A stretch of 64,000 nucleotides of DNA from Candidatus Cloacimonadales bacterium (GTDB taxonomy: Bacteria; Cloacimonadota; Cloacimonadia; Cloacimonadales; JAFGVF01): the NCBI GenBank assembly GCA_963677815.1, contig OY782499.1, positions 536,147 to 600,146 on the forward strand, read 5' to 3'. The notes under the pieces were generated by a model. It was not told the origin of the DNA and searched no databases. It saw only the letters and a list, made by a program, of their open reading frames with translations. Shown piece after piece: positions 3,434 through 48,544 of this stretch (position 1 is its first letter; the number at the start of each line of letters is the position of its first letter). A program made the position numbers and the translations under genes.

Positions 3434-5527
3434 ATGGCAACTACAGAATTAGATAAAATTAGAAATATTGGTATTATGGCTCATATAGATGCGGGTAAAA
3501 CAACTACCACTGAAAGAATCCTCTTTTATACAGGAAACATTCATAGGATGGGAGAGGTTCACGATGGTAATACTACTATGGACTGGATGGAACAGGAAAA
3601 AGAAAGAGGTATTACAATTACTTCAGCAACAACAGTTTGCCATTGGAAACACAACCAAATCAATATAATTGACACACCTGGTCATGTTGATTTTACTGCT
3701 GAAGTTGAACGTTCGCTTAGAGTTCTAGATGGTGCTGTTGCTGTATTTTGTGCTGTTGGTGGTGTTGAACCTCAATCTGAAACAGTTTGGCATCAAGCAG
3801 ACAAATACAAAGTACCAAGAATTGCCTTTATCAACAAAATGGATAGAAGTGGTGCCGACTTCGAAAATGTTGTTGAAATGATTCAAGCGAGATTATCCGA
3901 TAAAGCTTTACCTATCCAATTACCAATAGGTAGTGAAGACAGTTTTGAAGGCATTATTGATTTAATCAATATGAAAGCCATATACTTTGATTCTTCTTCC
4001 TTAGGAGCTACTTTTGAAAGCAGGGAAATTCCAGAAGACCTACAAGCTGATGCAGAAATGCATCAAGAAGCTTTGATAGACTTTATTGCAGAGTTCGATG
4101 AAGCTCTTATGGAAAAATATTTAGAAGGACAAAGTTTGACTGCTTGTGAAATTATTTCACTTATTAGAAAAGCTGTTATTTCTAATAATTTCATTCCTGT
4201 TTTATGTGGTTCTTCTCTTAAGAACAAAGGAGTTCAACCCTTATTAGATGCCATAGTAGATTTCTTGCCCTCCCCTCTTGATGTTCCAGCTTTAATTGCA
4301 ACAACAGCTGACGGATTAAAAGAAGAGACTGTTTTACCTAAATTAAATTCTAAGTTTTCTGGTTATGCTTTTAAAGTAGTAACAGATAAATTTTCAGGAA
4401 AACTTGTCTATATCAGAGTTTATTCAGGTACTCTCAAAAAAGGTGACCAGTTCATCAATGTAAATAATGGAAAGAAGGAAAGAGCTGGTAGAATTCTCCA
4501 GATGTATTCAAATAGAAAGCAAGATGTTGATGAACTTCATGCAGGTGATATTGGTGCAGTATTAGGTACAAAATTTACTATGACAGGGGAAACTATCGCA
4601 GAAAAGAACTATAATATACTTCTAGCTAAAATGGATTTCCCGGATACAGTTATTTCAATTGCTATTGAAGCAAAATCTAAATCGGATGAAGCTTCACTAA
4701 AAGATGCTCTTATCAAATTCCAAGAAGAAGACCCAACAATCAAGGTTAGAGAAGATAAAGATACTGGACAAACCCTTATTTCAGGTATGGGTGAGCTTCA
4801 TCTAGAGATTATAGTTGATAGACTCTTTAGGGAATTTAATGTTAATGCTAATGTCGGCGACCCACAAGTTGCTTATAAAGAAACTATTATTGCCCCAAAT
4901 TCGGCTCATGAGTTATTTGATAGAATGCTTGGGGATAAGAGATGTTTTGCTGATGTGAAGATTAGAGTGTCTCCATTATCAGAAGAAGAAATCTCTTCAA
5001 AACAAAAAAATATTTATGAATATAAAGCAGATGAAAAACTTCCACTTAACTTCAGACATGCAATTGAAGAATCTGCAATTAATGCTCTTAATGATGGACC
5101 AATCTTTTCTGCAAATTTAGAGAGAGTTAGGGTTGAAATCTTAGAAGCAAGCACTCTTCCTGAAGAGTCCAATGATACTGGTTTTAGGATTGCTACTTCT
5201 ATGGCAGTATCTAGAGCTATCAGAGAAACTAAATCAGCTCTTCTAGAACCTATCATGCTGGTAACTGTAATAACTCCAGAAGAAAATGTGGGAGATATTA
5301 TAGCTGACATCAACAGTAAGAGAGGTAAGGTTGAAGAGATTAGAAGTCAGAACAATAATAAACAAGAAATCTTGGCTAAGGTTCCAATGAGAGAGCTTTT
5401 TGGTTATTCAACGACAATTAGATCTATTTCCTCAGGTAGAGCCATCTATACGATGGAATATGATAGTTATCAGATAGTACCAAATAATATTAAAGAAGAA
5501 ATTATTAAAAAGATTAGAGGATATTGA
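3434..5527 (+). CDS. fusA: Translation elongation factor G (stand-alone copy, not in an rpsL-rpsG-fusA-tuf context)
   Basis: G1 [10 protein letters not shown]3 DTPGH and G4 NKMD motifs are present. The 697-aa EF-G architecture is complete. Confidence 0.95.
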
Positions 5528-5568
5528 TACTAATAAGCAATTTGACTTTTTGCTCAAGTTTTGCAATA

Positions 5569-5733
5569 ATCCCGAATGGTACAGTAGAGCTTTAGAGAAG
5601 AGTGCAGATTCTTCTAGCAAAATAACTTACATAATTTAGACGCATATAACATATATATTCGGAGAAATTATGGAAGTTCCTTTTGCAGAATAATATAGTG
5701 CTATTCACAAAGGTCTACTGCATTATTTGGGAT
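5569..5733 (+). repeat. R1 repeat, copy 1 (short form, 165 nt): imperfect long palindrome / candidate structured RNA or MITE
   Basis: The ends atcccgaatggtacagtagag ... ctactgcattatttgggat pair. The right two-thirds aligns closely by eye with 39404-39503 and 48365-48459. It lacks the ~30-nt internal hairpin found in copies 2 and 3. Confidence 0.7.
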
Positions 5734-5740
5734 AATAAAA

Positions 5741-5770
5741 AGGAGTCTTATCAAGACTCCTTAATTTTTT
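5741..5770. terminator. Bidirectional terminator between fusA/R1 and gap
   Basis: The stem aggagtctt/aagactcct (9 bp, loop atc) is flanked by a T-run on the plus strand (taatttttt) and an A-run upstream, which reads as a T-run on the minus strand. Confidence 0.8.
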
Positions 5771-15593: not shown

Positions 15594-15733
15594 CTATGGG
15601 ATGAGACCATCTTTGGTCTCAGGTGGAAGCAGGGATGCTTTCACTACTCCTAACTGGGAAAACGGGTATCTTGCCCGTACCAAGCTTTCCAAGCTTGCTT
15701 TTGTGGAAGCAGGGATGCTTCCACTCCATACAA
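15594..15733 (+). repeat. R2 motif, tandem composite A1 (two-hairpin, 15594-15650) plus A2 (three-hairpin, 15651-15733)
   Basis: Hairpins are tgagacca-tctt-tggtctca, gtggaagca-ggga-tgctttcac, acgggta-tct-tgcccgt, caagc-tttccaa-gcttg and gtggaagca-ggga-tgcttccac. The composite ends in the family tail ccactccatacaa. Confidence 0.75.
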
Positions 15734-15832: not shown

Positions 15833-17458
15833 CTAATTTAACCTACGAGCCAAGCGGAAGCCCAGATAGTTGTAGCAATTAGACGGGTAATAGTAGTTGC
15901 GATAAGCTACCCGGCAGAAGTTAGCAAAGCCGTACCAGCTACCGCCCCGATACACACGGCGATAGCCACTAGCAGGTCCCACCGGATTAGTCTGAGCATT
16001 GGAAGAATAAGATCCATACCAATCATTACACCACTCATAAACATTACCGGACATATCATATATACCTAAACCATTAGGAGCCTTAGTTCCTACATTGTGT
16101 GTCGTGGAACTGGAATTATCATAATACCAAGCCACACTATTAATATCATCAGAACCTGCATAAAGGTAATCTGGATTATAAGTCCCACCTCTGGCTGCAT
16201 ATTCCCATTCTGCTTCTGTTGGTAACCTGTAGCCATTGGCTGAGTAATCACATTCCCAAGTACTAGTATTATAGCATGGTGTTAAACCTTCTTGAATACT
16301 TCTGGCATTACAGTATTCAACTGCATCATACCAGCTTACTTGTTCCACAGGTTTATCTAAACCTGAGAAATAAGAAGGATTAGTCCCCATCACAGCTTGA
16401 TATTCAGCTTGAGTAACTTCATATTTACCTATATAAAACGATGAGAGACTTACTTGGTGGGTTGGGACTTCGTCAGAATCTCCTGTTCCTGTTGTTCTTC
16501 CCATAGTGAAAGTCCCTGCAGGTACTAAAACAAAATTATCTGGTATCGTATATATTTCCTCTTCTACAAAAGCACTTTCAAAATCTTGATAAAAGCTTTT
16601 AACTCGATAAAGGTAAATAGATGATGATTCAATATCGCTATCTTCATACTCTTGAGAATTTGCACCCAAGACTGCATACTCTTCTATCCAGTCTTCATTA
16701 TCCTTTTTCCTTGCTATTTTAAATCCATCTTCACCCTGATTATTGTCTACCCAAGACAAATAAACTGATATAAGAGATGTTTGGACTATTTGTAAATTGC
16801 TTGGTGGTGTGAACTCATTATTAACAGAAGTTTCAATAAAATCTGAGTTTACTGTTTCATAATAACTCATTACTCTGTATACATATTCAGAATTAGGCAG
16901 AATTGAATTATCTTCATACTCTAGAGAATTTTGTTCCAATACAGCATATTCTTCTATCCAGTCGTCAGTATCCTTTTTCCTTGCTATTTTAAAGCCTTCT
17001 TCCCACTGATTATTGTCTTCCCAAGTCAATCGAACTGATGTAGGAGATGTTTGGACTATTTGCAAATTTCTTGGTGGTGAGAACTCAGTATTAATAGTAG
17101 TTTCAATAAACTCTGAGCTTATCTCATCATAACATGCCTTCACCCTATACTTATACTCACTATTAGGTATGATATTGCTATCAATATACTCCGTTAAACT
17201 CTCTGTTACTGTAGCATAATCTACATTCCAATCTTCATTATCCTTTTTTCTTGCGATTTTAAATCCTTCTTCACTCAATGAGTTATCTTGCCAAGTTAAC
17301 CTACATTTATTAACAGCTATTTGTTCAATATTGAGATTAGAAGGTCCTGGTAATGTGTAAGAGGGGTCATAAGGATTCACAAAATCATCATTATCACATG
17401 ACCCTATTATTAAAGCAGTAAGTATTAATATTATTAAATTAATAAGTTTTTTTTGCAT
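15833..17458 (-). CDS. Lipoprotein with three Fn3-like repeats and a C-terminal formylglycine-generating-enzyme (SUMF1/FGE-sulfatase) domain
   Basis: Lipobox IIGSC. There are three ~90-aa repeats (LTWxDNxxxEEGFKIARKKDxxDW...YxYRV). The FGE-type C-terminus includes GNVYEWCNDWY and RVYRGGSW. I moved the start to the ATG at 17458, which has AGGAGG upstream. The track start at 17497 overlaps the upstream gene. Confidence 0.8.
   Translation of the reverse strand: MQKKLINLIILILTALIIGSCDNDDFVNPYDPSYTLPGPSNLNIEQIAVNKCRLTWQDNSLSEEGFKIARKKDNEDWNVDYATVTESLTEYIDSNIIPNSEYKYRVKACYDEISSEFIETTINTEFSPPRNLQIVQTSPTSVRLTWEDNNQWEEGFKIARKKDTDDWIEEYAVLEQNSLEYEDNSILPNSEYVYRVMSYYETVNSDFIETSVNNEFTPPSNLQIVQTSLISVYLSWVDNNQGEDGFKIARKKDNEDWIEEYAVLGANSQEYEDSDIESSSIYLYRVKSFYQDFESAFVEEEIYTIPDNFVLVPAGTFTMGRTTGTGDSDEVPTHQVSLSSFYIGKYEVTQAEYQAVMGTNPSYFSGLDKPVEQVSWYDAVEYCNARSIQEGLTPCYNTSTWECDYSANGYRLPTEAEWEYAARGGTYNPDYLYAGSDDINSVAWYYDNSSSTTHNVGTKAPNGLGIYDMSGNVYEWCNDWYGSYSSNAQTNPVGPASGYRRVYRGGSWYGFANFCRVAYRNYYYPSNCYNYLGFRLARRLN
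16560..17345 (-). repeat. Intragenic tandem repeat, 3 x 270 nt (the Fn3-like modules)
   Basis: cttctatccagtc at 16681 and 16951, and ctacattccaatc at 17221, give an exact 270-nt period. Units 2 and 3 are highly similar at the DNA level. Confidence 0.8.
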
Positions 17459-17466
17459 CTTTCCTC

Positions 17467-19455
17467 CTAATTTCCTGCAATAACAGTTCTTATCCAACTA
17501 TAGAGGGAGTAGATAGCCACTCCTGAAGCTGTATAATAGCTATAATCTCTTATATCTCGCCAAGTTTGAGTTTTATCTTTATAATCTAGGGCATCAACAG
17601 GGTTTGTAGTATTTTCATATTGGTCATAATAGGAATTAGCTATAATGTTAGAAGTTATAGCTCCTCCCAGAATTAAACTAGCTAGACCTGTAGATATCCA
17701 AGCTCTTCTTTTATGTTTATCATAATGATATTGTTTTGAACCTGCATAAGTTTCTAAGGGAATGGTAATCTCCTTGTGTTCATTTTCAGTAACGGTAAGT
17801 TTCCCTTGGTAGTCTAAGAATTGAGGGTGAGTAACCTTGAGGTCATAATCACCATAGAGGAGGGAAAGGAGGGCTGGGCTTTTATTCTCAGCTAAGTCAT
17901 TATCTAGATAAATATTAGCATCATTGACTGCTCGATTATTGTTGTATTTATCAACTGTTAAGAGGGAAACTGAGCCTAGTCTAGCTTGTGGTTCTAAGTT
18001 TATAACTTCTTCAGCTCCTACGATAAGATTAATCTCTTTACTGGCATCGAAATGTTTATCTCTTCTGCCTGTAATCTGGTATTTACCTGGCTCTAGATTG
18101 ATGTCCAAATTATCATTGCCCATTTTGACATCATTCAGATATATATCACATTGAGGAGCAGTAATTTTGAGACTTCCAAAGTTTTGAGTTAGGACATATT
18201 CTTTCTTAATAGTCTCATTAGCTGGGATTACTAATTCTTCTTCTACTGGCAACCATAAGTCTTGGGATATCTTGATAGTGTAAGTTCCTGCCATTAGTTT
18301 TGGGTTATGGTAGGGTAGTTTTCCAATCTCTTCTCCGTTTAGACTTAGTAAAGCATTTGGAGTAGAAAGACAGCTAATAGTAACATCTGAAAAATTGGGA
18401 ATTAAGTCTTGGCTTATATCCACTTCATCTCCATCTTGGATCTCAAAAGATTTTGTGACTTTTTGATAAGTATCTAATTCTAAGCTTAATTGGTGCTGTC
18501 CGCTTTCAAGCCTAGTCTCAAGCAAAGGAGTTTTACCAAGGACTTGGTCATCTAAGATTATTCTAGCACCAGGAGGATTTGACTTGATAGAAATCAATCC
18601 ATACTTAGGTCTAAGTTCATACTTTGCTAATCTCAAGGTCTGGTTTGAGGCAAGATTAAATGTTGCTGTTTCTGGATAAAACAAGTCTTTTTCTATAGTG
18701 ATAGTATATTTTCCAGGGAAATGACTTCCTTGATAAGGAGTTAAACCAACTCTTAATCCGTTAAGGCTAACGCTTGCTTCTTCAGGTTGAGATTCAATAA
18801 TAACTAAGCCAGGAGGGGAGAATTTCTCCTCACTTTCCCCCACTTCTAAAGATATATCAATATTTTTATCTGCTTGGGAAATATCAACTATTTTTGTCAG
18901 GGTCTCAAATCCTTCTTTAGCAAATTTAAACTGATAAGTGCCTTTGGGTAGTTTATATTGAGCATAATTGTTTTTAGCCTTGAAGGGTGCGTTGTTGTCA
19001 TAGGAAACCATCACATTTTCAGTATTTAATTTAAAAGTGATAGTTTTTAAGTCAGAAGTAATATCACGTAAACCTTCCCCCTTCTCATCAAGTGTCATTT
19101 TATATACTTTCCCACTCACTAGAGGATATGGGAAGTCATAACGGTGGTCAGCGAAACCATCTTTAGCAAGGATAATATACTTGGCCCTTTCTTTAAGCAC
19201 CACCCAGTAAGACCCACCTTTATTAATCTGAGATATTTTACTGTTCATGTTTTTAAAAAATACATCTTTTAATCCACAGTTAATAATTACTAGGGCTCCT
19301 AATTTATTTCGATTATCCATTTTTAAATTGTTATCAAGATCATACAAACCCATGTGTAGAGGTTCTTCTTCTAAATCCGATACTATTTCAAACTGAGCTC
19401 CAAAAAGTAGTGTCGCCTGTATAACCAATAAGATAAATATTACAAACTGTTTCAT
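17467..19455 (-). CDS. PEGA-domain repeat protein with signal peptide and C-terminal TM anchor
   Basis: Contains repeated PEGA-like units (e.g. PPGARIILDDQVLGKTP, EEASVSLNGLRVGLTP). It has an N-terminal signal peptide and a C-terminal hydrophobic segment WISTGLASLILGGAITSNIIA. Confidence 0.7.
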   Translation of the reverse strand: MKQFVIFILLVIQATLLFGAQFEIVSDLEEEPLHMGLYDLDNNLKMDNRNKLGALVIINCGLKDVFFKNMNSKISQINKGGSYWVVLKERAKYIILAKDGFADHRYDFPYPLVSGKVYKMTLDEKGEGLRDITSDLKTITFKLNTENVMVSYDNNAPFKAKNNYAQYKLPKGTYQFKFAKEGFETLTKIVDISQADKNIDISLEVGESEEKFSPPGLVIIESQPEEASVSLNGLRVGLTPYQGSHFPGKYTITIEKDLFYPETATFNLASNQTLRLAKYELRPKYGLISIKSNPPGARIILDDQVLGKTPLLETRLESGQHQLSLELDTYQKVTKSFEIQDGDEVDISQDLIPNFSDVTISCLSTPNALLSLNGEEIGKLPYHNPKLMAGTYTIKISQDLWLPVEEELVIPANETIKKEYVLTQNFGSLKITAPQCDIYLNDVKMGNDNLDINLEPGKYQITGRRDKHFDASKEINLIVGAEEVINLEPQARLGSVSLLTVDKYNNNRAVNDANIYLDNDLAENKSPALLSLLYGDYDLKVTHPQFLDYQGKLTVTENEHKEITIPLETYAGSKQYHYDKHKRRAWISTGLASLILGGAITSNIIANSYYDQYENTTNPVDALDYKDKTQTWRDIRDYSYYTASGVAIYSLYSWIRTVIAGN

Positions 19456-19561
19456 TTATTCCTCGTTTTCACCTAATAGTAAATTTCATTCATTATTTTC
19501 TTCCTGTTTATGTAGTCAAGAATTTAATTAATTTAAAGCTAAAAAATTGGGAAGGAAGCTT

Positions 19562-19639
19562 TTCAATCCTCAAGTTATTCTTTCCAATAGCTTATCTTTA
19601 AATAAGTCGATAAAATTTCACATCTTTACCTTTTCTTGA
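19562..19639 (+). repeat. R3 repeat, copy 1 (78 nt)
   Basis: 70 of 78 positions are identical to 39576-39653 (ttcaatcctcaagtta...atagcttatctttaaa...gtcgataa...tttaccttttcttga). Confidence 0.85.
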
Positions 19640-19768
19640 AATTTTTTCAAGATTGTTTATTGGTAACAAAGCCTCTTCTGTCGGAAGGCCTGTCTTCCCT
19701 AGCTTTAGCGAAGGGAGATGGAGATTCTCTCCGCCATCTGCGTAACCGCGGGCTGAAATCCCAATACC

Positions 19769-22917: not shown

Positions 22918-22975
22918 CTATGGACTGAGACCATCTCTGGTCTCAGGTGGAAGTAAGGATACTTCCACTCCATAC
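22918..22975 (+). repeat. R2 motif, copy C (minimal two-hairpin form)
   Basis: The sequence is ctatggact, then hp1 ctgagacca-tctc-tggtctcag, hp3 gtggaagta-agga-tacttccac, then tccatac. tatgga near the 5' end can pair with tccata at the 3' end. Confidence 0.8.
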
Positions 22976-29231: not shown

Positions 29232-29263
29232 CATATAAAAGACCATTAACAAAGTTGTTTTTG

Positions 29264-29356
29264 TCAGGTCCGGTGCAACTTTAACCCTCGAACCATGTCA
29301 GGTCAGGAATGAAGCAGCATTAAGAGGTGCTTAAAGTGTGCAACCGGTAGCCTGGC
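29264..29356 (+). ncRNA. ffs: Signal recognition particle RNA (small, 4.5S-type)
   Basis: Has the conserved domain IV core gtcaggtcaGGAAtgaagcagc (GGAA tetraloop plus the AGCAGC symmetric-loop strand). The 5' gtcaggtccgg pairs with the 3' ccggtagcctggc. A T7 run follows. Confidence 0.8.
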
Positions 29357-29493
29357 TTTTTTTATATCCAATTTTATAAAAACCCACTTATAACAAGATT
29401 ATTCCCAAACACAAGAAAAAAATATCGAAAAAAACTTGCCAAAAAAGCAATTCCTACTAAATTAGTATATAATACTAAATAAAAGGATGAAAG

Positions 29494-39257: not shown

Positions 39258-39283
39258 TTGTACCCATTTTTTGTTCTTTGTTC

Positions 39284-39503
39284 AACCCAGATGGTGTAGT
39301 AGAACTTTATTAATACTTCGCTAAAGCTACGTATCTCAGGTGAAGAGTGCAGATTATTCTAGCAAAATCCCCTTCTTCGAGGGGGATACAGAGGGTGATT
39401 CCTTAAACTACGCATATAATATATATATTCGGAGAAATTATGGAAGTTACTTTTGCAGAATAATATAGTGCTATTCACAAAGGTCTATTGCATTATTTGG
39501 GTT
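39284..39503 (+). repeat. R1 repeat, copy 2 (long form, 220 nt)
   Basis: The left arm aacccagatggtgtagtagaactttattaata pairs with the right arm tattcacaaaggtctattgcattatttgggtt. Of 32 positions, 24 are Watson-Crick, 5 are G-U/U-G and 3 are mismatches. The left end lies 27 nt from the rsgA start codon. Confidence 0.75.
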
Positions 39504-39575
39504 CAAGTATCAAATCTAATGGTTTTGTTGTAAAGATTTTTTTTAGAAGAGTTTAGTTTGAACATATTGAGAGTG

Positions 39576-39653
39576 TTCAATCCTCAAGTTACTATTTCTA
39601 ATAGCTTATCTTTAAACATGTCGATAATATTGCACATATTTACCTTTTCTTGA
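39576..39653 (+). repeat. R3 repeat, copy 2 (78 nt)
   Basis: About 90% identical to 19562-19639. Confidence 0.85.
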
Positions 39654-40169
39654 CTTTGGTGAAAAATTATGATTAGTAACATATACCCTACATTGGATTG
39701 GATTTCCGATAAGACACATCTTTTTTCAAGTAGCAGGAGTAAATTCATAAAAATCTCGGAGAGATGCAGATATAATAGGCATCCTTCCAGGATTAATGAG
39801 GATATATTTCAATATCCGAAATTTAGACAAGAATGTATTTATAAGTCAATTTGAAAAACTTAGCTATAAACTTAAAAATGTGCATGAATTGCTTTAGTTA
39901 GCACGAGTACATGCTATCTTTCAATTGTTTAGATTGAACAGTCTCAACATATTTACCATGGATTTGTAACCAAGTTATTGATTGTATATCTATTTAAATT
40001 TAAGATCTTAAAGAAGTTCTTGACATAAATTTGCAAATTACATAACTTTGGATTATGATAATTGATGTTGAAAAATAAATTGTCAGAGTATGAAATTTTA
40101 TTAGATTAACCGGTCCAGTTTCATTATAAGCTTTTAGTTTATAAAAAATATAATTAACTAATATATTAA

Positions 40170-41138
40170 ATGGATGTAAAAATGAAGAGACTTCTTCTAA
40201 TGTTATTAATTCTATTTATCATAATTCTACAATTATATGCTGATAGATATGAGTCAGTTCTTGTTGATACAATATACTGTGAACCTAACTCTATGACTGG
40301 GGATATTATTTATAATATGGAGTATAATGATTATTACTATTTCCCCAATGAACCATCCTTAAACATTGCTTATGATCAGAACTCTTTTCTAGGACCAGGT
40401 GTCACTGAATGTAGATCATTTGTTACATTCGAGACTAAACCAGTACCTAATAATTACCTTATATCAAATGTAATACTTCAACTTTACTGTTGGTATTATT
40501 GGGATAATGGGATAGAGTATATATGGCCACACTACTATTCGACCCCCTACACAGTCAATATTGATCATATACAATATGAGACAATAGCTCCTTCTGTTTT
40601 TGATATTGAATCACTTACTTCCAATGTAGGGGTCTTGCAGGACAGTGCTTATGTTGGTTGGGTCTCTTCTCTGGTTTCCGAGAGCTATCTTGACGATATT
40701 GAACAATCACGAGAATATTCGCAGTTTAGGCTGAGATTCCCACCAGGCCATGATATAGTCGGATATTCATCAGATTATGTATATTATGAAAATAACCCAT
40801 CTTCGTTTAGTTCATTTAATCCACACCTAATTGTAACCTACCATAAAACAGTTTCAAATTCTCAAGATGTTGAATCTATACCGAATCAGTTAATCAAACA
40901 AGTTTATCCACAACCTAGTAAAAATAATTTCAATATTGAATTTATGGATAAAGATAATAAACCCATTAATCTGTCTCTTTATGACCTTCGAGGTAGATTA
41001 GTTCACTCTGAAATCAATGTAGCTAAAAAAAATGGAATTGCAAAAATTCCAGTTTTAGATTATCCATCAGGCATATATTTTCTCAAGGTTAAAGCTGACA
41101 AGAAAAGCGAAGTTAGGAAAATAACTATTTTGAAATAA
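40170..41138 (+). CDS. Secreted protein of unknown function with T9SS C-terminal sorting domain (tandem paralog 1)
   Basis: Has a signal peptide and the C-terminal tail YPQPSKNNFNIEF...LSLYDLRGRLV...GIYFLKVK. An alternative start is the ATG at 40182. Confidence 0.7.
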   Translation: MDVKMKRLLLMLLILFIIILQLYADRYESVLVDTIYCEPNSMTGDIIYNMEYNDYYYFPNEPSLNIAYDQNSFLGPGVTECRSFVTFETKPVPNNYLISNVILQLYCWYYWDNGIEYIWPHYYSTPYTVNIDHIQYETIAPSVFDIESLTSNVGVLQDSAYVGWVSSLVSESYLDDIEQSREYSQFRLRFPPGHDIVGYSSDYVYYENNPSSFSSFNPHLIVTYHKTVSNSQDVESIPNQLIKQVYPQPSKNNFNIEFMDKDNKPINLSLYDLRGRLVHSEINVAKKNGIAKIPVLDYPSGIYFLKVKADKKSEVRKITILK

Positions 41139-41162
41139 ATGCCCAAACAAGAGGAGAAAAAG

Positions 41163-42119
41163 ATGAAAATGAAAATCCTTTTATTACTATTTTTAATTCA
41201 CACGATAATACCGATTTATGCTCAAGAAGACGATTCAGTTCTTGTTGATACAATATACTCTGAACCTATACCTATGACTGGGAATATTATCTACAACATG
41301 GAATCTCATGATTATTACCATTACCCCAATATGACATCCTTAATTATTGCATATAATATGAGATTTGATTTACCTGTTGGCATTGAAGAAAGTAGATCGT
41401 TTATTACATTTGATACTAAGCCAGTGCCTAATAATTACATTATAGCAAGTGTAACTCTTCAACTTTATTGTTGTTACTATTGGGATAACAGCATAGATCT
41501 TATATGGCCTCACTACTATTCGACCCCATACTCAGTCATTATTGACCACATCCAATTTGAGACCTTAACTCCTTCCGTTTTTGATCTTGAACCCCTTACA
41601 GCTAATGTGGGGGTCTTGCAGGATAGTGCTTATATTGGTTGGGTCTCCTTTCCGATTACCGAGAGCTATCTTAACGATATTGAACAAACTAGAGAATATT
41701 CGCAGTTTAGGCTGAGATTCCCTCCAGGTCATGATATAGTCGGATATTCATCAGATTATGTTGCATATGCAAATAACCCATCTTCATCTAATTCATTTGA
41801 TCCACACCTAATCGTAACCTACCATAAATCAGTGTCAAATTCTCAAGAGGTTGAACCCTTGCAGACTCAGCTAATCAAACTGATATATCCACAACCTAGT
41901 AAAAATAATTTCAATATTGAATTTATGGATAAAGATAATAAACCCATTAATCTGTCTCTTTATGATCTCCGAGGTAGATTAGTTCACTCTGAAATCAATG
42001 TAGCTAAAAAAAATGGAATTGCAAAAATTCCAACTTTAGATTATCCATCAGGCATATATTTCCTCAAGGTTAAAGATGGAAATAAAAGCGAAGTTAGGAA
42101 AATAACTATTTTGAAATAG
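41163..42119 (+). CDS. Secreted protein of unknown function with T9SS C-terminal sorting domain (tandem paralog 2)
   Basis: I chose the ATG at 41163 (MKMKILLLLFL), which has GAGGAG 6 nt upstream. The track ATG at 41139 directly abuts the paralog-1 stop and lacks an SD. Confidence 0.7.
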   Translation: MKMKILLLLFLIHTIIPIYAQEDDSVLVDTIYSEPIPMTGNIIYNMESHDYYHYPNMTSLIIAYNMRFDLPVGIEESRSFITFDTKPVPNNYIIASVTLQLYCCYYWDNSIDLIWPHYYSTPYSVIIDHIQFETLTPSVFDLEPLTANVGVLQDSAYIGWVSFPITESYLNDIEQTREYSQFRLRFPPGHDIVGYSSDYVAYANNPSSSNSFDPHLIVTYHKSVSNSQEVEPLQTQLIKLIYPQPSKNNFNIEFMDKDNKPINLSLYDLRGRLVHSEINVAKKNGIAKIPTLDYPSGIYFLKVKDGNKSEVRKITILK

Positions 42120-42355
42120 AATAATCTATTTCTTAAGCTACACCATATAGATATTTTAAGAGTAACTTGGAACTTACCTGCTTTAGATATTAAGATGATA
42201 AATTGTTAATAATAACCTAGCCCTTGCTTTTGAGAGATTCAAGATTTTTATATTGACTATCTACAGAATTATTTTTTTATGGTAAAAACTACTAATTATA
42301 ATATTCTATATTAATAAATTATAAAAATAAAAAATTAAAAAGTGATGGAGGAAAT

Positions 42356-45436: not shown

Positions 45437-48247
45437 TTATTTCATCAATACCATCTTCCCACTTATAGCCTTACTAGTAGTTTTTATTTTATATAGATAT
45501 ACTCCAGAAGCTACTTTATTACCCTGCTTGTCTCTTCCCGTCCATAGGACTTTTTGTTTACCTGCTAACTGTTCTTCATTAAGCAAAGTCTTTACTAATT
45601 GCCCTTTCAAGTTATAAATATCTACTTTCACTGGTCCAGTTTTTGGTAAATCATAAGAAATAGTAGTTTCAGGATTAAAAGGATTAGGATAATTATAAGT
45701 TGTAAAAGTAAGAGGAACTACTTCATCAGAATTATTTGGGACAAAGTAAGATAAGTCAATTAAATCACAAAAAACTCCTGGATTATTCGATAAATCATTT
45801 TCAATTCTACTAACATAAATACTATTATTATCAATCACACTTATTGCTGGTTTATATTGATATGTGAGATTTAAAGGTAAGGCAAATCCATCTTGAAATT
45901 GGTCTAATTGACCTTGAAAATTAATAGTCCTTAAATACACCCTCTGACTACCTGGAAGCTCTTGAGTATAAGCAAGCACAAATCTATCTTCCAAGGCTTT
46001 AAGAGAAAAGTCACTAACATACTCAGCTAATGTTTCTTGCCACACTTCCTCAAAATTATTATCTAAATTATAGCAGGATATTACTAATTCATCATTATTA
46101 TTATGGAACTTATAAAATCTATTATCAATTACATGGGATTCAATAATGTTATTATTAGTGCAAGGAAAAGTATAGTTAACTGTTTGTGACAAATCATCCA
46201 GATTAATATCAAAGACTTTGTATGTATCATTTGTGGAATATGAGAAGAGTAATCTATTTTGATAAGAAGAGATATTTCTATTTCTCGAAATATAATCATA
46301 ATCATCAGTAAAACTTTGACCTTCAGCAGTCCAACCATTAGCCAGTTCCCCTTCAGCGTCTATCTGAGTAATTTTGAAGTCTCCATTATATCTACTTATA
46401 AGATAATTGTCTTCAACTGCTAATAAGTCTAAATTCTCAATGGGTATATAAGAGATGGCAAGCATATTACCATCTTCAATTTTATTAAAAACATAATCTG
46501 CTCCTCCCCAATCAGAAGTCTTGTAAACAAACCAGCCATTACCCTCTTCAATGTCAGTCAAATAATCATAAGAATAATCTCCACCAAATCCACCGTGGAG
46601 TATCATTGTCTCTATGCTTCCATCTTCCTTGAATAATTTAGCTCTTTGACTTACACTAACTCCTGTACCATAATGATAAATATTATAATAAACTAGATAG
46701 CTATTTTCTGATATTCTATGCAAAGAACTATTTCCACAATCAGTAAGAATATTTTCTAATCCTATTGGCATACCACTTTCATCTACCCCACTCTCCAAAA
46801 AACAGTTCCATGAAAACATTACTGCATTATTATTATCATTCCAAATGAATGAATTGACCTTGTCTATCTCATAAGGAAATGACACAGCTATTTCCTGAGG
46901 ATTTGAAGTTGCATCAGATGCCGATTCATAAGCAATAAAATGTTGTTTATAAGCAGAATAATACCCAAGTCTATGATTAACAATAAAGGAAGCACTTGTA
47001 GCTCCTAGATTAACAAAAAGGGCAGAATCTTCACCACAGTCTCCCGATATATAATCCTCAGCAAAAATCAGAGAGTTATCATTGAGATTATAACTATAAA
47101 AACCTACCTTAACACCATAATTTGCTTGCAAATAGTCTGTTTTACTTACAAGTACAAGCCTATAGTTTTCACCTACTATCTCACTATCTACACTGGTAAT
47201 TTGATCAAAAATATAATTAAATCCATCAAAAATCGAGCCGAATATCTCATAGTGATTAGTTGAATTAATTAAACTTCCATCAATGTTATATTCTCTTAAA
47301 AGAAGAACATCACCTATCGATACAGCTAAAAATTCATTTTCTGAAATTTTTTGTACATCTAGCAAAGGATATTCTAAAGTAGTAGTAGTAAATTCACCAA
47401 GTAGTCGATCATAGATAAAGACGTCAGGATATTGCCCCATAGAACTAAATAAGTTTGCAGAAGCTTCTGTAATTAATCCAAAGAGTACTTTATCATTACT
47501 TAGCTCTAATATCTTGCATGTCTTATATAAATTTTCATCAAAGACACTCGAAACATAAGAGTTGTAATTATCAATCTCATGGTCTGTATTACCTATTCTT
47601 ATGAATAGCTTACTCTCGTCAGGTTGTAACCACATGTAGGTAAGTCCATCACTTGTTATTGCTCCAGTATAAGACACAAGATTTTCACCCTCGGCAATAA
47701 TATTCTGACTTATTATTTGTGGTATATTATTTACAAGATTAATCTTATAATTGGTCAGACAATCATCGTAATCTACCGAGCCATAGTTCACTAGTACATA
47801 GATATCATTTTCATCTTCCAATAACTGAACCTCTTTTAATATTCCATCTGCATACTCAAGTAAGTAAATTTCTAAAGGTAAGTCCCATAAATCTAAACCA
47901 GCACTTGAAATCTTCTTAACCAATAGCCTGTTTCCATCTTCCCAATATATAAAAAAGTTGCCATCTGCACTTCTTTTAATTTCGAATAACCATTCTTCAT
48001 CTATCTGAAAGTTTAAATCAATAGCCTGCTCTAATAATGGGTCTCCAGTTTGAGAATATTTTTCTAATAAGAGTTGATTATTTAAAGTATAAAATATTAT
48101 TGTTCCTTCTGGAATATTTTCTTTATAAACTATTGAACTTTTACTTCTTTGATACATACAAGCAGATTGGTCCCATATAACCTGAGATAATAGACAACTG
48201 ATAGCAGTCAAGAATAGTATAGCAAGTACAAGATTTTTCTTATTCAC
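45437..48247 (-). CDS. Large secreted protein of unknown function with T9SS C-terminal sorting domain
   Basis: Has a signal peptide and the C-terminus NYPNPFNPETTISYDLPKTGPVKVDIYNLKGQLV...GVYLYKI. AGGAGGA sits upstream of the ATG. Confidence 0.75.
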   Translation of the reverse strand: MNKKNLVLAILFLTAISCLLSQVIWDQSACMYQRSKSSIVYKENIPEGTIIFYTLNNQLLLEKYSQTGDPLLEQAIDLNFQIDEEWLFEIKRSADGNFFIYWEDGNRLLVKKISSAGLDLWDLPLEIYLLEYADGILKEVQLLEDENDIYVLVNYGSVDYDDCLTNYKINLVNNIPQIISQNIIAEGENLVSYTGAITSDGLTYMWLQPDESKLFIRIGNTDHEIDNYNSYVSSVFDENLYKTCKILELSNDKVLFGLITEASANLFSSMGQYPDVFIYDRLLGEFTTTTLEYPLLDVQKISENEFLAVSIGDVLLLREYNIDGSLINSTNHYEIFGSIFDGFNYIFDQITSVDSEIVGENYRLVLVSKTDYLQANYGVKVGFYSYNLNDNSLIFAEDYISGDCGEDSALFVNLGATSASFIVNHRLGYYSAYKQHFIAYESASDATSNPQEIAVSFPYEIDKVNSFIWNDNNNAVMFSWNCFLESGVDESGMPIGLENILTDCGNSSLHRISENSYLVYYNIYHYGTGVSVSQRAKLFKEDGSIETMILHGGFGGDYSYDYLTDIEEGNGWFVYKTSDWGGADYVFNKIEDGNMLAISYIPIENLDLLAVEDNYLISRYNGDFKITQIDAEGELANGWTAEGQSFTDDYDYISRNRNISSYQNRLLFSYSTNDTYKVFDINLDDLSQTVNYTFPCTNNNIIESHVIDNRFYKFHNNNDELVISCYNLDNNFEEVWQETLAEYVSDFSLKALEDRFVLAYTQELPGSQRVYLRTINFQGQLDQFQDGFALPLNLTYQYKPAISVIDNNSIYVSRIENDLSNNPGVFCDLIDLSYFVPNNSDEVVPLTFTTYNYPNPFNPETTISYDLPKTGPVKVDIYNLKGQLVKTLLNEEQLAGKQKVLWTGRDKQGNKVASGVYLYKIKTTSKAISGKMVLMK

Positions 48248-48264
48248 TTTATCCTCCTCTGTTT

Positions 48265-48459
48265 AACCCAGATTGTGCAATAGAGCTTTAGTAATACTTC
48301 GCTAAAGCTACGTATCACAGGCGAAGAGTGCATATTCTTTTAGCAAAATAGCTTACAGAATTCCGACGCATATAATATATATATTCGGAAGAATTATGTA
48401 AGTTACTTTTGCAAAAGAATATAGTGCTATTCTCAAAGATCTATTGCATTATTTGGGTT
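48265..48459 (+). repeat. R1 repeat, copy 3 (195 nt)
   Basis: The ends aacccagattgtgcaatagag ... atctattgcattatttgggtt pair. The left end is 18 nt from the start codon at 48247 and abuts its Shine-Dalgarno. Confidence 0.75.
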
Positions 48460-48544
48460 TAATTCATCACAACATATTTCATGCATTATTTATTCCAATT
48501 GTACATTAACTGGTTAAATTATTATCTCCAAAGATTCTTAATAT

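Follow-up and report, generated by a model that had tools for sequence, protein, structure and literature searches.

Three long palindromes in a Candidatus Cloacimonadales genome as probable members of an IS1380-linked family of miniature transposable elements

Palindromic units and their genomic setting

We analysed a stretch of 64,000 nucleotides from a Candidatus Cloacimonadales genome (GenBank assembly GCA_963677815.1, contig OY782499.1, positions 536,147 to 600,146), referred to as the window, in which an earlier note had drawn attention to a long imperfect palindrome present three times. These palindromes are very probably copies of a non-coding family of MITEs (miniature inverted-repeat transposable elements) mobilised by an IS1380-type transposase. 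Genes around the copies encode EF-G, GAPDH, RsgA, NAD kinase and pirin, as well as a number of proteins that bear type IX secretion sorting tails. Exact-protein look-ups for the RsgA, pirin, EF-G and GAPDH of the window gave no match; the closest named relatives of its RsgA belong to Candidatus Cloacimonadales.

The positions given for the copies in the earlier note, 5569-5733, 39284-39503 and 48265-48459, all on the plus strand, were borne out apart from the outermost two nucleotides at each end (aa/tt or at/at), which belong to a 5-bp target-site duplication and not to the element. The mobile unit itself runs from CCC to GGG and has the terminal inverted repeats CCCRRATRRTGYARTAGA and TCTAYTGCATTATTTGGG. 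Copy 1 (5571-5731) is a canonical unit of 161 bp, recognised by profile match (nhmmer) and fold, and stands between ATAAT at 5566-5570 and ATAAT at 5732-5736. The flagged copy, copy 2 (39286-39501), is a unit of 216 bp with a full-length nhmmer match and the corresponding fold; it belongs to a long subfamily with two inserted modules, A and B, and is bordered by TTCAA at 39281-39285 and 39502-39506. Copy 3 (48267-48457), likewise supported by nhmmer and fold, measures 191 bp, contains module A only and is flanked by TTTAA at 48262-48266 and 48458-48462. The duplications of copies 1 and 3 were assigned from sequence and from the family-wide duplication statistics, that of copy 2 from sequence and from the single TTCAA at the empty site in two related contigs. 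Three occurrences of a 19-nt core motif were counted in the window, against an expectation of 0.13. The shared orientation is true of these three copies; both orientations occur in related loci, so it is no property of the family.

With its duplication counted, copy 1 starts 38 nt past the stop codon of the EF-G gene (3434-5527), and a bidirectional terminator-like hairpin (5740-5762) lies directly downstream of it; copy 1 is placed within the EF-G 3' untranslated region. Copy 2 is situated upstream of rsgA, a minus-strand gene whose start codon is 23 nt away, and copy 3 lies about 14 nt from the GTG start codon (ribosome-binding site GGAGG) of a minus-strand gene (45437-48247) for a 936-residue protein with a secretion tail, the duplication being counted in both cases. 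Transcription toward the adjoining gene would, for copies 2 and 3, give the weaker minus-strand hairpin.

At 161-216 bp the units lie under the limit of about 400 bp for MITEs, and no transposase reading frame or other coding content was found in them: their sole internal ATG opens a frame of seven codons or a start-stop frame, and it is unconserved between subfamilies. A GGAG followed six nucleotides later by ATG is present in the window at 5661-5695 and at the same place in other copies (alignment A2, columns ~92-125), and some of the frames run via the right end into flanking DNA. A conserved small open reading frame inside the MITE was nevertheless rejected, as the frame after GGAG-N6-ATG ends at seven codons, ends as ATGTAA or leaves the element, depending on the subfamily.

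Target sites and the IS1380 connection

When a collection with a single genome for each species was scanned with a 20-base motif of the right arm, more than 105 stretches matched, and all matches listed were in four metagenome-assembled genomes (MAGs) of Cloacimonadota/Cloacimonadales. The three window copies were made into a profile, which was searched with nhmmer in 105 fetched stretches of these four genomes (loci fetched for comparison carry labels of the form L051; the related loci amount to 766 kb). Besides the three matches in the window, at least 190 non-overlapping matches were obtained, at least 81 of them full length. The commonest length class, 160-169 nt, comprises 57 of the 81 full-length copies, and for this reason copy 1 is regarded as canonical, with copies 2 and 3 being longer variants; the family has a canonical size of 161 bp and variants of 191 and about 216 bp with one or two inserted hairpin modules. 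Nested copies occur in the related loci, as do tandem copies separated by exactly one 5-mer. In one fragmented MAG, which represents a different species from the window genome (shared genes show 76-83% nucleotide identity), 50 matches lie at the ends of fetched loci, some of these ends being 8-kb fetch boundaries and some contig ends. This pile-up agrees with a repeat at which assemblies break, and the family offers an account of assembly breaks in Cloacimonadota MAGs.

The pentanucleotides flanking CCC...GGG are identical in 55 of 76 copies, while shuffled left-right pairings gave 17 identities on average and never more than 26; flank lengths of four and six bases gave no match as a duplication. 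TTAAA (23 copies), TTTAA (18) and ATAAT (4) are the commonest duplications. Non-palindromic flanks, namely TTAAT, TTTAT, ATAAA and ATTAA, match as direct and not as inverted repeats, and the flanks are therefore not part of the inverted terminus. This result also disposes of one of two compensatory changes that had been proposed for an RNA stem. The terminal swap between aaccc/gggtt and atccc/gggat consists of the inner two bases of different palindromic targets (TTNAA versus ATAAT) and is therefore not RNA covariation.

Insertion at the site of copy 2 could be followed directly in two metagenome contigs from different samples, L106 and L107, whose encoded RsgA is 96% identical to that of the window. 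Both read CTTTGTTCAAGTATCAAATC (longer: CTTTGTTCAAGTATCAAATCTAATGG) with a single TTCAA, and the occupied site in the window reads CTTTGTTCAA, the 216-bp unit, and TTCAAGTATCAAATC (longer right flank TTCAAGTATCAAATCTAATGG). Copy 2 is a precise insertion with duplication of TTCAA. As MITE sites are polymorphic between strains with RsgA proteins 96% identical, they provide an insertion marker at the strain level. Two further copies have interrupted other repeats: the L038 copy sits inside a member of another repeat family, of which intact paralogues have ATTAT once, and the L044 copy sits inside a repeated sequence, of which intact copies have TTAAA once. The L091 copy lies between a stop codon and a terminator, and the orthologous gap in L029, which is from another species, is without a copy. 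The intergenic region of copy 3 in L108 (RsgA 87% identical) is too diverged for an empty-site comparison. The orthologous sites near the genes fusA and gap in JAEKNW01 contain independent MITE insertions that differ in position and orientation, their flanks being too diverged for clean junctions. Between fusA and gap of that species, at about 1-420 of L019, 3' of fusA, an independent MITE whose position differs from that of copy 1 and whose orientation is opposite was observed together with other short G+C-rich hairpin repeats (CCCGAAGGGATGCAG... and CCCCGGAGGGGCG).

A MITE was among the candidates raised in the earlier note, which had named target duplications and empty sites in relatives as the check to be made. 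Both were found, and the candidate is further strengthened by a transposase-bearing partner with the same ends. This insertion sequence (IS) came to light in a search of the fetched loci that was directed at end-like sequences not belonging to known MITE copies. It occupies 2124-3817 of L051 (OY829950) in a species different from that of the window, measures 1,694 bp, has the ends CCCAAATAATGCA...TGCATTATTTGGG and a TTTAA duplication, and carries a single open reading frame of 469 codons. The right end of the MITE is identical to the terminus of this IS over 16 nt, and the shared ends overall extend over 13-16 nt; the MITE ends are CCCAAATAATGCAGTA and variants, as in IS1380-family IS of Cloacimonadales.

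The 469-residue transposase matches the Pfam family DDE_Tnp_1_4 (PF13701) with 90.9 bits at a cut-off of 34.7. With tblastn it retrieved annotated IS1380-family transposases on plasmids, among them one of Aliarcobacter (32% identity, 94% of the query covered, E 4e-52), and genes of the ISEcp1 type at 27.5% identity; a search of solved structures with this protein gave chance matches only. IS1380-family elements recorded in ISfinder have ends beginning with CC and a 4-5-bp duplication. The MITE and the L051 IS combine CCC...GGG ends with a 5-bp duplication, and the Aliarcobacter member is alike: the annotated plasmid-borne element (L111, 352-1822) has the ends CCCGCATTATGCAATAG / CTATTGCATAATCTGGG and TTAAT on both sides. 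The right end of ISEcp1 reads ACGTGGAATTTAGG. MITE and IS1380-family IS (the L051 IS, the Aliarcobacter element and ISEcp1) have in common ends starting with CC(C/T)A(A/G)AT and an A+T-rich 5-bp duplication, but the MITE is without a transposase gene and has about one tenth of the size. Its interior is unrelated to that of the L051 IS, and it is therefore not a simple internal deletion of an L051 copy.

Common ends, target duplications, empty sites, nested insertions and copy number are direct observations, whereas the identity of the mobilising transposase is inferred. According to this proposal, a transposase supplied in trans by an IS1380-type IS would recognise both MITE ends and insert the unit at a pentanucleotide of the form WTNAW, in most cases TTAAA or TTTAA, with duplication of those 5 bp. 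Several results weigh against it. No perfect duplication was found for 21 of the 76 copies, which may be a consequence of decay or of imprecise boundaries. The L051 transposase reached 175.8 bits (E 1e-51) with the NCBIfam model for IS1380 (NF033539), just under the cut-off of 180. A second copy of the partner IS was not found in the 766 kb of related loci or in the window, and the L051 transposase is the only one there. Finally, the mobilising enzyme of the window's own genome is not seen in the window, as tblastn detected no IS1380-type transposase in it, in agreement with the earlier note, which had listed no transposase near the copies.

Two other classes of repeat were weighed. An invertible DNA segment, that is, a phase-variation switch bounded by inverted repeats, had been suggested, and the inverted termini beside the gene starts at copies 2 and 3 are its sole support. 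Such a switch is practically out of the question, because the element is dispersed in hundreds of copies over five or more genomes and is present or absent at precise sites with 5-bp duplications, the unit is palindromic throughout with no unique segment between two repeats, and no recombinase gene adjoins the copies in the window. A repeat of the REP/REPIN type, spread by a RAYT (IS200/IS605-like, single-strand) transposase, would agree with a dispersed intergenic hairpin, and the better fold of one strand recalls single-strand transposition. REP/REPIN sequences are short, G+C-rich and free of target duplications. The elements described here, in contrast, measure 161-216 bp, are A+T-rich, have 5-bp duplications and share their ends with a DDE IS of the IS1380 type, so that a member of this class (PMC3733652, PMC3116915) is a very improbable identification.

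A MITE is an ordinary kind of bacterial repeat, and the nearest analogue found is bcr1 (with bcr2 and bcr3) of the Bacillus cereus group. Like the MITE here, bcr1 (about 155 bp) is A+T-rich, intergenic and present in high copy number, and it stands between direct repeats of a favoured 5-bp sequence (TTTAT for bcr1); it also folds as a long stem-loop, shows compensatory changes and occurs in untranslated regions of mRNAs (PMC3184786, PMC6542083, PMC3446304). It differs in host phylum and shows no sequence similarity. The literature covered names no established transposase partner of bcr1, and a mechanism resembling site-specific recombination is discussed (PMC6542083), whereas the MITE here has a matching IS1380-family IS. 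A full-text search of a partial literature library revealed neither a MITE tied to IS1380 nor a description of Cloacimonadota repeats, and the family may be an early example of an IS1380-linked MITE. It does not overturn current understanding.

The ends and targets also bear on piggyBac. IS1380 transposases are prokaryotic relatives used as an outgroup of piggyBac (PMC10813416, PMC10140906), which inserts at TTAA and has CCC/GGG as the first three terminal bases (PMC10140906). The MITE resembles piggyBac in its TTNAA-like targets and in beginning with CCC and ending with GGG, but differs in its bacterial host and in a duplication of 5 instead of 4 bp. This resemblance would fit the kinship of IS1380 and may serve as a lead. 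As a separate observation, the IS1380-family elements of two distant phyla, the L051 IS and the Aliarcobacter element in L111, share ends of the CCCnnATnATGCAATAG type and 5-bp TTNAA or TTAAT duplications, and their ends and targets recall the piggyBac TTAA target and CCC/GGG termini. An IS1380 clade with piggyBac-like CCC...GGG ends and a TTNAA target could allow the question of how piggyBac came by its target choice to be studied in bacteria.

Strand asymmetry of the hairpin

The less ordinary trait of this MITE is that its hairpin is kept much better on one strand. An end stem of about 30 bp had been described; the pairing is real but continues from one end of the element to the other, and the consensus hairpin of the canonical core (161 nt) has 66 predicted pairs. 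As the whole MITE is a quasi-palindrome, any transcript or single strand across it would fold as one long hairpin. Recounting the outer 32 ungapped positions of copy 2 reproduced the 24 Watson-Crick pairs, 5 G·U pairs and 3 mismatches noted before. The conclusion drawn from them, that the stem is better as plus-strand RNA, holds for the minimum free energies of copy 1 (-58.1 kcal/mol for the plus versus -47.2 kcal/mol for the minus strand), copy 2 (-73.2 versus -46.1) and copy 3 (-71.9 versus -62.1) as well as family-wide, as detailed below. The z-scores of the plus-strand folds of the three copies range from -6.7 to -10.3. The plus-strand hairpin is far more stable because, where the two arms fail to match, the mismatch is on this strand overwhelmingly a G·T.

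For the family, pairs were counted in 45 distinct canonical copies on the 66-pair consensus hairpin, a structure derived from the consensus of these same copies. The pair cells comprise 2575 Watson-Crick pairs, 271 G·U pairs, 14 A·C pairs (which are G·U on the other strand) and 109 others, so that 95.9% of the cells are paired on the plus strand versus 87.2% on the minus strand. The alifold consensus energy is -39.1 for the plus and -9.0 for the minus strand. Ten pairs have changed on both sides, in 79 cells, the copies concerned being related through subfamilies. The second of the proposed compensatory changes, an internal exchange of A-T and G-C, is one of these ten covarying pairs: core position 14 is G-C in 25 copies and A-U in 13.

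These results raise the possibility that the mobile MITE is also a functional structured RNA, in which the double-stranded hairpin of the plus strand would act in cis on host mRNA by stabilising it, by offering a nuclease target or by blocking translation; selection for such a fold would account for the G·U pattern and for the compensatory changes. We regard this addition to the MITE reading, which it would not replace, as tentative. The excess of G·U over A·C cells and the ten pairs changed on both sides argue for it, although the cell counts are inflated by high-frequency polymorphisms inherited within subfamilies. The covariation score of 0.126 likewise supports it, as it exceeds the mean of shuffled alignments (0.089), each of 500 shuffles and all slid registers, although related sequences may do so without any structure. 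Long RNA stem-loops are a classic feature of MITEs, some of which are co-transcribed and alter mRNA stability (PMC3184786), and compensatory changes and effects on mRNA stability have been described for other MITEs (PMC3184786, PMC3446304). ERIC and related enterobacterial MITEs and the Correia elements of Neisseria are imperfect palindromes of 100-170 bp which, like the MITE here, fold over their full length; they are co-transcribed with neighbouring genes and are reported to have context-dependent effects on mRNA stability (PMC3184786). They differ from the MITE here in ends, target and presumed transposase family.

Since the copies are related, changes were also counted as events by parsimony on a neighbour-joining tree. 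Changes from Watson-Crick to G·U pairs number 35 versus 10 from Watson-Crick to A·C (p = 0.0002), and on terminal branches only 24 versus 8 (p = 0.007). Transitions of these two classes are nearly equal in number at unpaired positions, 13 versus 11 (Fisher test against paired positions, p = 0.056). A transition bias at paired but not at unpaired positions is an argument for a constraint linked to plus-strand pairing and not for mutational bias alone, and it counts in favour of a structured RNA. The skew of 35 to 10 inferred events provides a clean dataset with which to ask if RNA-level selection has moulded the hairpins of bacterial MITEs.

Copy 1 and the L091 copy, each between a stop codon and a terminator, are likely co-transcribed, a point in favour of a functional RNA. 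Copies within 50 nt of a start codon mostly place the weak strand in the mRNA (8/26 versus 3/33, p = 0.046), a suggestive pattern in the same favour, which copies 2 and 3 fit. Overall, the orientation to genes is without bias and speaks against a functional RNA: between genes of the same direction, 19 copies are co-oriented and 12 anti-oriented (p = 0.28), and a further 17 copies are in convergent and 14 in divergent settings. Of the RNA candidate of the earlier note, the internal swap and the family-wide G·U asymmetry are left standing, whereas the terminal swap proved spurious and the absence of an orientation bias counts against it.

Other results are also unfavourable to selection at the RNA level. 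Pairs are disrupted in many copies, and the tree contains 57 pair-breaking transversions, so individual copies decay. Promoter- and terminator-like signals around the three window copies do not exceed shuffled expectation; a weak minus-strand site of the form TAGACC-16-TATTAT, matched at 9 of 12 positions, recurs in the right arm of copies 1 and 2. A comparison with Rfam yielded nothing for the window copies of the element at gathering thresholds, and around copy 2 nothing even up to E = 10. Folding with DNA parameters yields the same strand preference (-32.2 versus -23.7).

The last result also counts in favour of an alternative, in which the asymmetry would be a by-product of transposition and not of RNA function. 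The transposase would require a canonical right end (CCCAAATAATGCA) but put up with purine transitions in the left one, which would account for the terminal G·T pairs, and template switching within the quasi-palindrome at replication would transfer changes between the arms and so produce apparent compensatory changes. Template-switch correction of quasi-palindromes is an established mutational mechanism. In keeping with such a by-product, the right arm, which equals the IS terminus over 16 nt, is nearly invariant, all high-frequency variation of the terminal 18 nt is in the left arm, and several differently mutated left ends have each been multiplied and hence are still competent for transposition. 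However, G·U-only or compensatory pairs are also found deep inside the element (columns 33/132, 34/131, 45/120, 56/109, 57/108, 68/97 and 72/93), far from any plausible transposase-binding end. In addition, the transposase meets both ends from the outside in, so that tolerance alone does not predict which end varies, and template switching should erase G·T as readily as A·C. This origin of the asymmetry is conceivable but doubtful.

With moderate confidence we attribute the asymmetry to selection that would favour folding of the plus-strand transcript; for certain other MITEs of bacteria the same has been proposed. One can speculate further that the plus-strand transcript is a selected, near-perfect 66-bp RNA hairpin which the host or the element uses in cis, for example as a target of a double-strand-specific nuclease or as a protector of mRNA 3' ends, and which depends on orientation through its G·U-only design. 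This we consider rather unlikely. If true, the effect would be strong where the plus strand is transcribed and weak where the minus strand is, and transposition would spread a ready-made two-state post-transcriptional module across Cloacimonadales genomes. In practical terms, the family should be masked before small RNAs or regulatory hairpins are called in these genomes.

Subfamilies, short relatives and neighbouring repeats

An extra hairpin in copies 2 and 3 and a further insertion in copy 2 had been noticed earlier; both are real and recur elsewhere as modules of subfamilies. Module A of copy 2 (approximately 39310-39339, plus strand) is an insertion of about 30 nt with a CTTCGC...GTGAAG hairpin (alignment A3). 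Copy 3 and at least 10 copies of other genomes also have it, whereas the canonical form of 161 nt does not. Module B of copy 2 (approximately 39369-39409, plus strand) consists of the hairpin CCCCTTCTTCGAGGGGG and the sequence following it, in place of the canonical central segment (alignment A3); the consensus scan also flagged it as terminator-like on the minus strand. This module (CCCCTT...GAGGGGG) is common to copy 2, L047, L022, L087 and L069, in all of which the architecture with modules A and B recurs, and it occurs without module A in L101 and L062. The 191-nt subfamily of copy 3 includes L033, L061, L086, L103 and others.

Shorter elements of 57-87 nt with the same CCCAAATAATGCA terminus were observed at L048 81-144, L069 5203-5266, L078 5361-5417 and L089 2768-2854, and solitary end-like sequences with this terminus at L006 5617-5634, L080 711-728 and L108 ~2925-2945. 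Among these short or solitary ends, CCCAAATAATGCATTCGG is a recurrent variant. They suggest further non-autonomous families using the same transposase.

Another family of dispersed repeats, about 180 nt long, is represented by 28 matches, in the window at 19553-19737 and 39569-39691 and elsewhere in L067 (6142-6345), L024, L089, L015, L004, L080, L097, L050, L082 and others. Most of its full-length copies precede a gene start by some 70-100 nt and always face the gene in the same way, a placement like that of a shared promoter or 5' leader. One window copy precedes a minus-strand gene (17467-19455), and the other precedes rsgA, with copy 2 of the MITE between repeat and start codon. The MITE copy of L038 is inserted into a member of this family.

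The gap between rsgA and the next gene measures about 220 bp in the contigs with 96% identical RsgA (L106, 9780-10001) versus about 3.1 kb in the window (39507-42355). In the window it holds copy 2, the leader-like repeat and two tandem paralogous genes for proteins with secretion tails (40170-41138 and 41139-42119; repeats D1 and D4, spacing 981 bp). The gene for the 936-residue protein beside copy 3 is also absent in the strain with 96% identical RsgA. This part of the window, by rsgA and copy 3, is a variable surface-protein region.

Three observations concern other parts of the window. Three tandem 270-nt repeats with 78-90% identity (16639-17295; families D2 and D5) probably encode a repeated protein domain. 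A 52-nt sequence with two short hairpins (GAGACCATCTTTGGTCTC; GTGGAAGC...GCTTTCAC) is found at 15594-15645 and, 7.3 kb apart and with 87% identity, at 22918-22969. A gene for the small bacterial signal recognition particle RNA is located on the plus strand at 29262-29360 (Rfam RF00169, 75.5 bits).

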